Virus record (IMG/VR): IMGVR_UViG_3300018432_000013
Location: 1-64,000 of that record
Source: a virus
Reading direction: 5' to 3' (one strand)
Length of the DNA stretch: 64,000 bases
A model generated the notes under the pieces. The model did no database searches and was not told where the DNA came from. It was given only the letters and a program-made list of their open reading frames with translations. Made by a program: the position numbers and the translations under genes. Below, in pieces: positions 2,897-5,566 of the stretch. The first letter of the stretch is position 1; each line of letters begins with the position of its first letter.

Positions 2897-3218
2897 GGCG
2901 CTTTCGTGTTTTGCCTCAGGTGAACCGCAAAAGCGAGTGTTCTGCCGAGATCTAAGAACGAGAGATCCTGAGTACTGGAAGCAGCCGGGCAAAGTGAGAT
3001 GGTCCCTGCCGGGCAGCCTGACTACATCCCTTCGGGCGATCGTGGAACCGTCTCGGACAAAGTGAGACTGGCTGACCATAGAAAACCCGCTGGCTGCGCC
3101 TTCAGGACGCAAATACCAGCGGGTCTTGTTCGTTTCAGGAGGGCTGCGTCGCGCGCAGCCGTCGATGTGCTGCGATCAGGTGTACTTGAGACGGAGCTCC
3201 GCCCTGCAGGGGGCTACT

Positions 3219-4070
3219 TCAGCCACCGATGTTCCAACGCTTGCGAAGCGCGGCAATCGCCGGGTGGTCCTTGCCGTCGTCAAGCTCCGCCTGTTGGCGC
3301 TCGGCGATAGCGGCCTTCTGCGCGGGCTGCTGCGCGTCCGGAGGTGCCACGCGCTCCATGCGCGACTTCTGATCGGCGAGCAGTCGATTGGTTCGGTCGA
3401 GCTGCATCTGCTTGGACAGCAGCTTGACGAACGGCGCGCGGCCGCGCTTCGGATGGAGTTCGAAGCGGCCGCGAAACAGGGCCTTGTCCTCGGGCTTGAG
3501 GTTGCGGTGATGGTCGCCCGTGCTGAGCTCTTCGAGGATGCGGCGCACCGTGCGCTCGTGCAGCCCGCTCGCGCGCGCGAGGTCCTCTGCGTAGACCTCC
3601 ACCGCGCCGCTGCGCGCGACTTTCGCACCCTGGCGCTTGTCCCACCGGCGCAAGAGGCCGAGCACGATCGCGCGGTTGGCATCGAGCTCGCGCACGTCGT
3701 CAGGCACCACGCGCACCCAGCCGCCGAGGCTCTCGTCGAAGCTCCCGGGAATCGCATAGCCATTCGTATCGAAAAAGGGCTTGAGCTTTTGGACCAGGCG
3801 GTAGCACTGCGATCGCGAGTACCCCGTCCAGCGCATCAGCGTCCGCACGTCGATGCGCGCCCCGAAGCTAAAGCGGTAGCGGTCCGCAGCATACGCGACG
3901 GCGAGTGCGCCGGTCATGCCTGGCAAGCGCAGAATGCTGTTCGGAACCCGCAAAAAGCGGGGACTAGCGGTACTCGAGGGCGGTTCAATAGAGTCCCCAA
4001 CCCAGGACGGTTCCGGGTCAGATCCACTCGTGATTTGTTTGGCGCTCGAGACCCCACATGATAGGGTCAA
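3219..4070 (-). CDS. replication initiator protein with two winged HTH domains
   Basis: FLRVPNSIL N-terminal motif (HTH_36-like); VRTLMRWTGYSRSQCYRLVQKL and AEDLARASGLHERTVRRILEEL; GAGGA SD before TTG. Confidence 0.6.
   Translation of the reverse strand: MTLSCGVSSAKQITSGSDPEPSWVGDSIEPPSSTASPRFLRVPNSILRLPGMTGALAVAYAADRYRFSFGARIDVRTLMRWTGYSRSQCYRLVQKLKPFFDTNGYAIPGSFDESLGGWVRVVPDDVRELDANRAIVLGLLRRWDKRQGAKVARSGAVEVYAEDLARASGLHERTVRRILEELSTGDHHRNLKPEDKALFRGRFELHPKRGRAPFVKLLSKQMQLDRTNRLLADQKSRMERVAPPDAQQPAQKAAIAERQQAELDDGKDHPAIAALRKRWNIGG
4039..4067 (+). promoter_or_regulatory. sigma70-like promoter TTGGCG-N17-TAGGGT with TG extension, antisense to rep
   Basis: Direct match with 17-nt spacer inside the first rep codons. 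Confidence 0.55.
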
Positions 4071-4073
4071 CTC

Positions 4074-4152
4074 AATCCTCGGGGCCGCGTTGTAAGCGCG
4101 GTATTGGGGCGGGCTCTTTCGGTGTTGCGACCGGAAGGGCCCAAAGCTTTTA
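4074..4152 (+). ncRNA. candidate counter-transcribed antisense RNA over the rep RBS and leader
   Basis: Promoter upstream; hairpins 4085-4101 and 4111-4142 (13 bp, fully paired only on + via G-U); U-run at end. Confidence 0.5.
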
Positions 4153-4370
4153 ATGTCGGCTGCTCAGCGCCCTATGAAGCTGAGACTGGTGTGTGCGCCC
4201 AAACACAGCAGACCCCCGCCCGGGAATCAACTTTTCAGTATCGCCAGAGCACCTTTCGGACCTGAAACGGAGAGCTCTACTGAAAAAGGCGCATCAAGGC
4301 TGTACGGGTGTGCTGATCCGTCACGATCTCGCATGCCTGTAGTAACGTGGCGGCGGAAAGGGTGGGGGCT

Positions 4371-4380
4371 GGGCACTAAC
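4371..4380 (+). promoter_or_regulatory. RGGCACYAAC motif (putative promoter)
   Basis: GGGCACTAAC 32 nt before ATG 4413, SD between. Confidence 0.6.
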
Positions 4381-4412
4381 TGCTGGGGAACCTCCACCTG
4401 GAAGAGGCCCCC

Positions 4413-5150
4413 ATGCCGAACGAGAAGCTCACCGAAATCGTCGTCCTGCTCGACCGCTCGGGCTCCATGTCACGCATTCAGATCGAGATGATGCTCGGCT
4501 GGAAGACCTTCATGGACGAGCAGCTGCGCCACCCTGACCCCGCGGTCGTTTCGCTCTACCAGTTCGATGATCAGTTCGAAGCGGTCTACGAGGAGCGCGC
4601 GATCCGCGACGCCGTCCTTGTGCTTCGTCCTCGCGGTGACACCGCACTGCTCGACGCCATGGGTCGTGCCATCACGCTCGTCGGCGAGCGCCTTGCGAAA
4701 AAGCGAGAAGAGCATCGTCCCGGCAAGGTGGTCTTTCTCGTCATCACCGACGGCATGGAGAACCGCTCGCATGAGTTCTCACGCCTGAAGATCGCCGAGA
4801 TGGTCAAGCACCAGCAGGAGAAGTACGGCTGGCAGTTCGCCTTCCTCGGCTCGAACCTCGACTCGTTTGCCGAGGCGCAAAGCCTTGGCATCGAGCGCGG
4901 CGCGGTGGCGAACTTTCAGAGCAACGCAGCCGGTGTGCAGGCCATGTACGGCGCCTCCAGCCGAGGCCTGAGCGCCTACCGCTCGGCAACTGGGCGAGAC
5001 GCCAAGCTCAACATCGGCGAGCAGCCGCAATCGCAGGTGCAGCCTGTCGCAGCGCCCATCATCGACCCCAACAGCGACCTCGACCTCGAGCCAGATCCCG
5101 AGCCCGAGCTTGCGCCTGGCACACCGAGCGCTCCGAACGAGGACCTGTGA
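4413..5150 (+). CDS. von Willebrand factor A domain protein
   Basis: MIDAS LLDRSGSM, TALLDA, VITDGMEN. Confidence 0.9.
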   Translation: MPNEKLTEIVVLLDRSGSMSRIQIEMMLGWKTFMDEQLRHPDPAVVSLYQFDDQFEAVYEERAIRDAVLVLRPRGDTALLDAMGRAITLVGERLAKKREEHRPGKVVFLVITDGMENRSHEFSRLKIAEMVKHQQEKYGWQFAFLGSNLDSFAEAQSLGIERGAVANFQSNAAGVQAMYGASSRGLSAYRSATGRDAKLNIGEQPQSQVQPVAAPIIDPNSDLDLEPDPEPELAPGTPSAPNEDL

Positions 5151-5566
5151 CCAAGCCGAACTTCGAGCTCCTCTACCTTCAGTCGGAGCTGCGCGTGGGG
5201 CGCACCACGCGCGCGCTTCAGAAGATCGTCGAGCTCGTGCACAAGCTCGACGCACCGGACGCCTCGGAGATCCGGCTTGTTGCGCAAGAGGCGCTCGCTG
5301 GACCTGATCCGTCGGTGCGCACCGACTTTGACGACCTAACTTCACGCGCGCTCTTTGACGCCGTCATGCAGACGGAGCCGGAGTCGCCTGACGTGATGAC
5401 CGCTCGCTACGGATCGCTGACGATCGTCGCTTCGCCCATCGTGCCGCGCGACCTCGTGCTCGTCTCCGATGGCGAGGACGTTCGCAGCTTCAAACTTGTG
5501 CCGATCGAGTCCGAAGGCACCGAACCAGAGAAGTCCCGGGCTCACTGGTGCGAGGGCTGCGACTAG
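5147..5566 (+). CDS. hypothetical protein
   Basis: GTGA coupling to vWA gene. Confidence 0.65.
   Translation: MTKPNFELLYLQSELRVGRTTRALQKIVELVHKLDAPDASEIRLVAQEALAGPDPSVRTDFDDLTSRALFDAVMQTEPESPDVMTARYGSLTIVASPIVPRDLVLVSDGEDVRSFKLVPIESEGTEPEKSRAHWCEGCD

Follow-up and report, generated by a model that had tools for sequence, protein, structure and literature searches.

A predicted antisense RNA beside a solitary Cas12m repeat upstream of an initiator-like gene in a tailed phage

Gene Arrangement at the Locus

The DNA analyzed here, called the window below, is the first 64 kb (64,000 nt) of a 112,926-bp IMG/VR virus record (IMGVR_UViG_3300018432_000013). The two ends of the record overlap by 123 bp, and the genome is therefore effectively circular. 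It has a GC content of 63% and carries the myovirus genes for tail sheath, baseplate, tape measure, portal, and large terminase. A myxophage lineage named MV-1, in which a 610-aa Cas12m has an adjacent array, has been described in a 2026 preprint (10.64898/2026.09.14.751636), and the phage described there is probably the present one or a near relative.

The locus is a divergent spacer of 342 bp (4071-4412), with gene P0001 on its left (- strand) and the gene of a VWA-domain protein (phrog_7371; 4413-5150, + strand), the first of a rightward operon, on its right. A phage-specific promoter-like motif, GGGCACTAAC, is positioned on the + strand at 4371-4380, 32 nt before the VWA start at 4413. This motif has 12 copies in the window against 0.25 expected and 18 genome-wide; all 18 members of the family point toward an ATG or gene start just downstream, many of them ending 0-9 nt before the ATG, and the copy at 4371-4380 is likely the promoter of the VWA operon. 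Inspection by eye ruled against GGGCACYAAC as a sigma-54 site, its GG-GC spacing being 2 nt too short. The search for tRNA and tmRNA genes returned none.

P0001 encodes a tandem winged-helix DNA-binding protein of 283 aa (3219-4070, - strand) starting at TTG 4070-4068, and the Shine-Dalgarno (SD) sequence GAGGA lies at 4076-4080, 5 nt upstream of the TTG. The GC content by codon position is 0.68/0.49/0.81. The database protein P0002 begins only at M52 of P0001, while P0003 (48% identity) aligns with P0001 from residue 1, and an N-terminal motif, MTL[SA].G...A.K, is common to P0003 and P0008. This conserved N-terminus places the start at TTG 4070. The only other in-frame start, the TTG of codon 40, is downstream of the conserved residues W23, G25, D26, P30, P31, P37, and F39, which shows that the database call from M52 is too short. 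The gene start and SD that the initial annotation had assumed are thus upheld by the N-termini of the homologues.

The identity of the protein is less clear-cut. The family is very small: 11 of 1.84 billion cluster representatives at 50% identity belong to it. Its one Pfam match, to HTH_36, is weak (25.7 bits), there is no match in PHROGs or NCBIfam, and the best hit of a PDB profile search is CAP with an E-value of 0.095. In the AlphaFold model (pLDDT 76), a first winged helix spans residues ~40-117 and a second ~120-220. The only full-length Foldseek matches of this model are RepE54 and related Rep structures (E 0.02-0.05), RepE54 itself having an E-value of ~0.02-0.03, a probability of 0.96, and a TM-score of ~0.42 over ~225 columns. 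Many winged-helix regulators were matched by VIA, DnaD-NTD, Pi, and RctB (Z 4.7-5.8) being some of them, and the ESM Atlas neighbors are HTH_36 proteins, of which a few carry DnaD_N or RP-C. Compared with the iteron-type initiators (RepE/Pi/RepA, Pfam Rep_3), P0001 has the tandem winged helices and lacks the sequence profile and the iterons; no iterons or direct-repeat family was found in or near 4071-4412. The gene had been called rep at the outset, and what is left of that claim is a weak resemblance of the tandem winged helices to RepE, Pi, and DnaD, with neither a Rep profile nor iterons to go with it. Judged from the modeled fold, "initiator-like" is a fair label, and "Rep" is too strong.

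Strand-Specific Hairpins and a Promoter-Like Site

The part of the spacer next to P0001 folds strongly as RNA on one strand. The + strand RNA of 4074-4152 has a folding energy of -43.5 kcal/mol (z -4.59; 0/200 shuffles as good), with identical MFE and centroid structures, whereas the - strand RNA of the same region reaches -24.3 kcal/mol (z -1.26). All 27 stem pairs form on the + strand, and 7 of these are G-U pairs that would become C-A on the - strand, so the strand assignment made earlier from the pairing agrees with these values. When every 70-nt window of the genome was scored on both strands, the site ranked ~16th for stability and 2nd for + strand bias, and the higher-ranking windows lie mostly in GC-rich coding sequence or are perfect palindromes. 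Folded as DNA, neither strand is significant (z -1.8 and -0.8), which marks the structure as a property of the + strand RNA; by these two values a single-stranded DNA hairpin (ssi-type site) is not supported. For the whole spacer compared with shuffles, the + strand is the more structured (z -2.7 against -0.08 for the - strand), and the strand difference is concentrated in 4074-4145, which accounts for 19 kcal/mol against ~8 for the rest. The last + strand hairpin of the spacer encloses the VWA start.

Two stem-loops make up this structure. Stem-loop 1 (4077-4109) has 14 pairs, five of them G-U, and a GUA loop; its outer 6 bp, CCUCGG/UUGGGG (4077-4082/4104-4109), contain the anti-SD, and its inner 8 bp join 4084-4091 to 4095-4102. 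Stem-loop 2 (4111-4142) has a stem of 13 bp (4111-4123/4130-4142) and the loop GUUGCG. The second hairpin is just as it was first described, with exactly two G-U pairs, whereas the first, described as a 5-bp hairpin at 4085-4101, is actually the compound stem of 6 + 8 bp. An unpaired anti-SD at the 5' end had also been proposed, and this has to be given up: AAU alone is unpaired there, and CCUCGG is paired with UUGGGG in both the MFE and the centroid structure. On the opposite strand, the complementary hairpin still forms in the P0001 leader, and its loop CGCAAC faces the loop GUUGCG.

Downstream of stem-loop 2, UUUU is present at 4147-4150, separated from the stem by the 5 nt AAAGC. In the clear terminators of this phage the U-run begins 0-2 nt after the stem, and the terminator scan called no + strand terminator at 4147-4150; the four U, which the initial annotation described as a U-run, are a weak intrinsic terminator at best. 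The same scan showed a weak - strand terminator-like hairpin at 4228-4211, which is within chance expectation. Searching Rfam 15 (E up to 10, positions 3000-5500), a check that had been proposed for this RNA, gave two chance snoRNA matches elsewhere and no match at the site, whether to a ctRNA, CopA, or RNAI family or to any other. No YUNR loop motif is visible in the hairpin sequence.

Upstream of the hairpins lies a promoter-like site on the + strand. A -35-like hexamer, TTGGCG (4039-4044), is located inside P0001 codons 9-11 (A10 K11), and an extended -10-like element, TGaTAGGGT (4059-4067), is located inside the codons of T2, L3, and S4. The spacing between TTGGCG and TAGGGT (4062-4067) is 17 nt, with TG at 4059-4060. 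The site that had been reported within the first codons of the gene is accordingly present, though it matches the consensus at 7/12 positions, plus the TG, and it was not called by the promoter scan. The pattern TTGnnn-N16-18-TAnnnT occurs 23 times in 226 kb (both strands), fewer than in shuffles, and within 4000-4430 on both strands TGaTAGGGT is the sole TAnnnT with a usable TTGnnn -35; on the - strand upstream of P0001, no TAnnnT was found in this interval. The clear early promoters of the phage differ from it, having the form AAnAAGATTGACGG-N15-17-TAnnnT at 71962, 75863, and 76522. The -10 and -35 elements fall on T2, L3, S4, and A10, which are conserved in the homologues and belong to a tail modeled as disordered (pLDDT <50). 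This conservation fits a conserved embedded promoter and could equally be that of a peptide motif.

The strand-specific structure and the position of the promoter are most simply explained by a + strand RNA that begins near 4074, and on sequence grounds the odds lean slightly toward such a predicted RNA.

The Solitary Repeat and the Cas12m Module

The hairpins are followed by a sequence that belongs to a CRISPR system of the phage. A 605-aa ORF matches Cas12m in the PDB (23vw_A, E 7.2e-83; Cas12m2 8hhl, E 4.8e-30) and carries a Cas12f1-like TNB domain. Directly downstream of this ORF is an array on the - strand (104.5-108.5 kb), made of ~43 copies of the repeat GCAACGGCTGCTCAGCGCCCTTGAAGCTGAGAC (33-36 nt). 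Units 1-9 of the array are regular, with spacers of 33-41 nt and one of 26. Beyond these, ~30 units follow at irregular intervals, their spacers ranging over 12-41 nt. Three compensatory changes and four sense-strand wobble changes in the repeat stems fix the RNA sense. A ParA-like ATPase is encoded between the array and the window start, and the Cas12m/array module is ~8.6 kb from the hairpin site across the end overlap.

A solitary Cas12m (type V-M) repeat was identified at 4155-4186 on the + strand (nhmmer E 3.7e-10, model positions 6-36), the only copy in the genome outside the array region and inverted relative to the array. It begins 4 nt after the UUUU, on the same strand as the hairpins. 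Its stem, CUCAGC/GCUGAG, is intact and is formed in the + strand MFE structure; the first 5 model positions are unmatched, and the loop variant is within the array's own range. The odds that a single copy would by chance lie in the orientation of the hairpins and no more than ~100 nt from them are ~4 in 10,000, and the hairpins and the solitary repeat are therefore probably one unit.

After the repeat comes a spacer-like sequence (4187-4210, + strand) of uncertain extent, with no target found. In the phage genome it has no PAM-flanked target, the best matches being at chance level (12/16 positions, or 13 nt internal). By the crlRNA/CreR criterion of ~9-10 or more matching PAM-proximal nt beside a PAM, no such promoter site was found in the phage's own genome; nor do the array spacers have self-targets in the phage genome. 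No + strand terminator is present in 4187-4300. The hairpins have no complementarity to the repeat, and the search for anti-repeat or tracr-like pairing outside the array returned the solitary repeat's own, trivial complement and nothing else. Upstream of this repeat, the sequence is not significantly like the array leader, since 9 of 300 random pieces score as well; an 11-mer, CTCGGGGCCGC, is common to the two and is not significant.

Relatives of the locus were also sought. The phage collection gave none by tblastn and blastn, and searches of viral, metagenome, and genome collections for related loci, made with P0001, P0003, P0004, and P0008 and with alignments, returned none. A repeat-pattern scan had 0 matches in the viral collection and 8 single chance matches, without arrays, in the genome collection. 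The relatives of the VWA gene that were found are low-GC and not syntenic upstream.

Possible Function of the Predicted Antisense RNA

If transcribed, the + strand sequence 4074-4152 would be complementary over its full length to positions -4 to about -80 of the P0001 leader, a stretch that takes in the SD GAGGA; an RNA from ~4074 would cover the SD and not the start codon. Given this RNA and a P0001 leader that we assume to be at least 80 nt long, antisense pairing over the SD would be unavoidable. The sigma-70-type promoter in P0001 codons 2-11 would start the RNA near 4074, and its 6-nt loop GUUGCG could form a kissing contact with CGCAAC, the loop of its counterpart hairpin in the leader; the two complementary loops are a plausible entry point for pairing. 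The duplex would then spread over the SD and lower P0001 translation, in the manner of plasmid countertranscripts. As the terminator is weak, its UUUU lying 5 nt past the stem, some transcripts would probably continue into the solitary Cas12m repeat at 4155-4186 and yield a Cas12m-handle (crRNA-like) RNA, and the unit may thereby couple the Cas12m system to the control region. We consider countertranscript repression of P0001, with a weak terminator and read-through into a Cas12m handle, to be the best single explanation of the locus, at a probability of roughly 0.35-0.4.

The initial annotation had proposed plasmid-style control of a rep gene. Its geometry fits, the SD being covered and the loops complementary, and what falls short is the canonical terminator, the Rfam match, and the Rep identity, which is weak. 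Among the marks of a ctRNA, antisense-specific stem-loops and an overlap with the SD/start region were found here, and a terminator and a match to a curated family were not. The solitary repeat follows directly on the same strand, so the RNA may go beyond a copy-control countertranscript or be something different. The simple copy-control reading is plausible and probably incomplete. "Copy control" would be a further step, which requires that P0001 is an initiator and that the phage has a plasmid-like state, for which the ParA-like gene is the only supporting point.

The same features can be read with the solitary repeat at the center. The hairpins would then be the 5' leader of a Cas12m-handle RNA (a crRNA-like, "crl" RNA or an mRNA leader), starting from 4039-4067 or from a weaker TTGCGA-N19-TAATGT at 4126-4156; Cas12m would bind or cut the handle, and the overlap with the P0001 RBS would be incidental. 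The phage encodes Cas12m, its array stems give the RNA sense, the sole solitary repeat, with an intact stem, shares the strand of the hairpins and begins 4 nt beyond the U-run, no real terminator intervening, and single-repeat crlRNAs are known from type V-A (10.1101/2024.10.29.618823; 10.1101/2023.03.10.532045). Set against this are the spacer-like sequence, which has neither a PAM-flanked target in the phage genome nor a terminator after it, the five unmatched positions at the start of the repeat model, an upstream sequence unlike the array leader, and hairpins that do not complement the repeat, and on balance this account seems unlikely, though it deserves serious consideration. A different possibility is that there is no functional + strand RNA, and that the inverted repeats act as DNA operators, through which P0001 might regulate itself, or are chance structure in a GC-rich spacer. 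The initiator RepE acts at an inverted repeat to repress the promoter of its own gene, and the P0001 fold matches RepE, weakly; high-GC genomes give many stable folds, 15 windows of this one score better than the site, and the evidence comes from a single sequence. However, all seven non-Watson-Crick pairs are G-U on the + strand, for which the two-sided chance is ~0.016 if orientation is random, the DNA fold is not significant, no iteron or direct repeat is nearby, and the two palindromes have no common half-site sequence, which together make operators or chance improbable.

The promoter could also serve the other gene. As an early promoter of the VWA operon it would make the 340-nt + strand region a long structured 5' UTR, and GGGCACTAAC at 4371 would be a second, later promoter. 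The excess of + strand structure over the whole spacer, the hairpin that encloses the VWA start, and the co-orientation of the solitary repeat with the VWA operon speak for such a leader. Yet the strand bias sits mostly in 4074-4145, the operon has its own motif 32 nt before its ATG, and a GC-rich 13-bp stem followed by UUUU would attenuate read-through, and we regard a leader of this kind as quite improbable. Most doubtful is a combined proposal, in which the hairpins, the solitary repeat, and the following sequence would be one RNA tying the phage's Cas12m, of the DNA-binding and non-cutting type, to initiator and partition control. This might occur through Cas12m processing that releases an antisense RNA and a guide, or through a 113-nt hairpin-plus-repeat scaffold acting as a long omega-RNA-like guide. 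Cas12m2 works with one crRNA and no tracrRNA; it binds to DNA at 5'-TTN and brings about silencing with no cleavage (PMC10442227).

Should the antisense RNA prove real, it would mean that an initiator-like gene of a large tailed virus resembling myxophages is under the control of a plasmid-style countertranscript; this would support a plasmid-like replicon lifestyle, the ParA-like ATPase being in the same module. The junction of hairpins and solitary repeat is also a concrete place to ask whether the phage Cas12m acts on its own transcripts or promoters, a question that published Cas12m work has not addressed. Were the combined proposal true, a CRISPR effector would be a built-in regulator of a phage replicon.

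Comparison With Known Systems

The predicted RNA has several likenesses to plasmid countertranscripts such as R1 CopA/CopT, pMV158 RNAII, ColE2 RNAI, and the repABC ctRNA. The target gene carries the promoter at its 5' end, the short RNA predicted from the sequence would form two stem-loops and run antisense to leader and SD, and the complementary 6-nt loops could kiss. In contrast to these systems, the locus has no canonical U-tract terminator, no YUNR loop, and no Rfam match; its target P0001 is only Rep-like, a CRISPR repeat directly follows, and the setting is a tailed phage of 113 kb whose ends overlap by 123 bp rather than a plasmid. Antisense RNAs of phages are another point of comparison. 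Lambda OOP, P22 sar, and P1 c4 are, like the RNA predicted here, short structured antisense RNAs of a constitutive type in a phage early control region beside replication genes, but OOP targets the 3' end of cII and not an RBS, and there is no sequence or Rfam relation.

For the solitary repeat, the nearest counterparts are CreR, crlRNA, viral Cracr, and solitary repeat units/Racr (10.1101/2023.03.10.532045; 10.1101/2024.10.29.618823; PMC10651486), in which, as here, one repeat with an intact stem and a spacer-like sequence are located outside an array in a promoter region. None of these papers describes a type V-M element of this kind. Unlike CreR, crlRNA, and Racr, the cognate effector at this locus (Cas12m, type V-M) is the phage's own, no PAM-flanked promoter target and no terminator were found, and two strong hairpins precede the repeat. 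With regard to MV-1, the preprint (10.64898/2026.09.14.751636) gives 8 spacers and mentions neither the solitary repeat nor the ~30 irregular repeats. In both cases, a Cas12m of ~605-610 aa is encoded beside an array in a complete myxophage genome, without cas1, cas2, or tracrRNA.

Putative Promoter Elements

The motif RGGCACYAAC occurs 18 times genome-wide, with 12 copies inside the window, against 0.25 expected (positions 4371, 5700, 6190, 9086, 30049, 36104, 38241, 40610, 55177, 58154, 59016 and 59963), and six past 64 kb. Every copy is oriented toward an ATG or gene start close downstream, and the gap between the end of the motif and the ATG is often just 0–9 nt, with no Shine-Dalgarno sequence. 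RGGCACYAAC has the look of a promoter element specific to this phage, one that would give rise to leaderless or near-leaderless mRNAs. The spacing within the motif is a poor match to sigma-54.

Three sigma-70-like promoters on the + strand, which lie outside the window among small genes (whole-record positions G000:C1:71962, 75863 and 76522), share the pattern AAnAAGATTGACGG-N15-17-TAnnnT and are likely early promoters. The same small-gene region holds a second repeat family on the - strand (G000:C1:72659-74432), consisting of five copies of ~45 nt each containing ..GAATCTCAGCGCGCGATCCCGCGTGCGATCCCGTGTGCG.., spaced 300–770 nt apart. Also outside the window, a perfect 19-bp palindrome, GAATCGGGCCCGCACTC...GAGTGCGGGCCCGATTC (G000:C1:71340-71386), is equally stable on either strand, carries no U-runs and has the appearance of a bidirectional terminator.

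Cas12m Array and ParA-like Gene

The Cas12m CRISPR array is located on the - strand (L008:2695-5016 in the sub-piece of the record, equal to G000:C1:106194-108515), and ~43 repeat copies were counted in total, including two further copies at G000:C1:104473-104544. The first nine units are regular, and beyond them the spacers become shorter and variable (12–41 nt), with insertions and deletions in the loops of the repeats. Pairing in the stems is nevertheless preserved by three compensatory and four wobble changes. The array is far longer and more unusual than the eight spacers given for the myxophage lineage MV-1 (bioRxiv 10.64898/2026.09.14.751636).

The - strand also encodes a Cas12m homologue of 605 aa (L008:5094-6911) and a ParA-like partition ATPase (L008:7993-8694; NCBIfam ParA_partition, E 1e-43, a match under the NCBIfam curated cutoff). 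The module containing these genes connects to the left end of the window through the 123-bp end overlap, and the ParA-like gene lends some support to a plasmid-like state of the phage.

Initiator-like Gene and Divergent Spacer

In the database, the replication-initiator-like gene P0001 starts at M52 and encodes 232 aa. A fold model and homologue alignment show that its true start is TTG 4070, giving 283 aa; the difference concerns window positions 3917-4070.

In the adjoining divergent spacer, a small - strand-specific hairpin (GAUUCCC-GGGC-GGGGGUC, 4211-4228), followed by UGCUGUGUUU, sits upstream of the anti-repeat, the - strand complement of the solitary Cas12m repeat. Possible roles are termination or attenuation of transcription; alternatively, the hairpin may overlap a -35-like site of P0001, GAAAAGTTGATT. 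A hairpin of this kind is no more than chance predicts.
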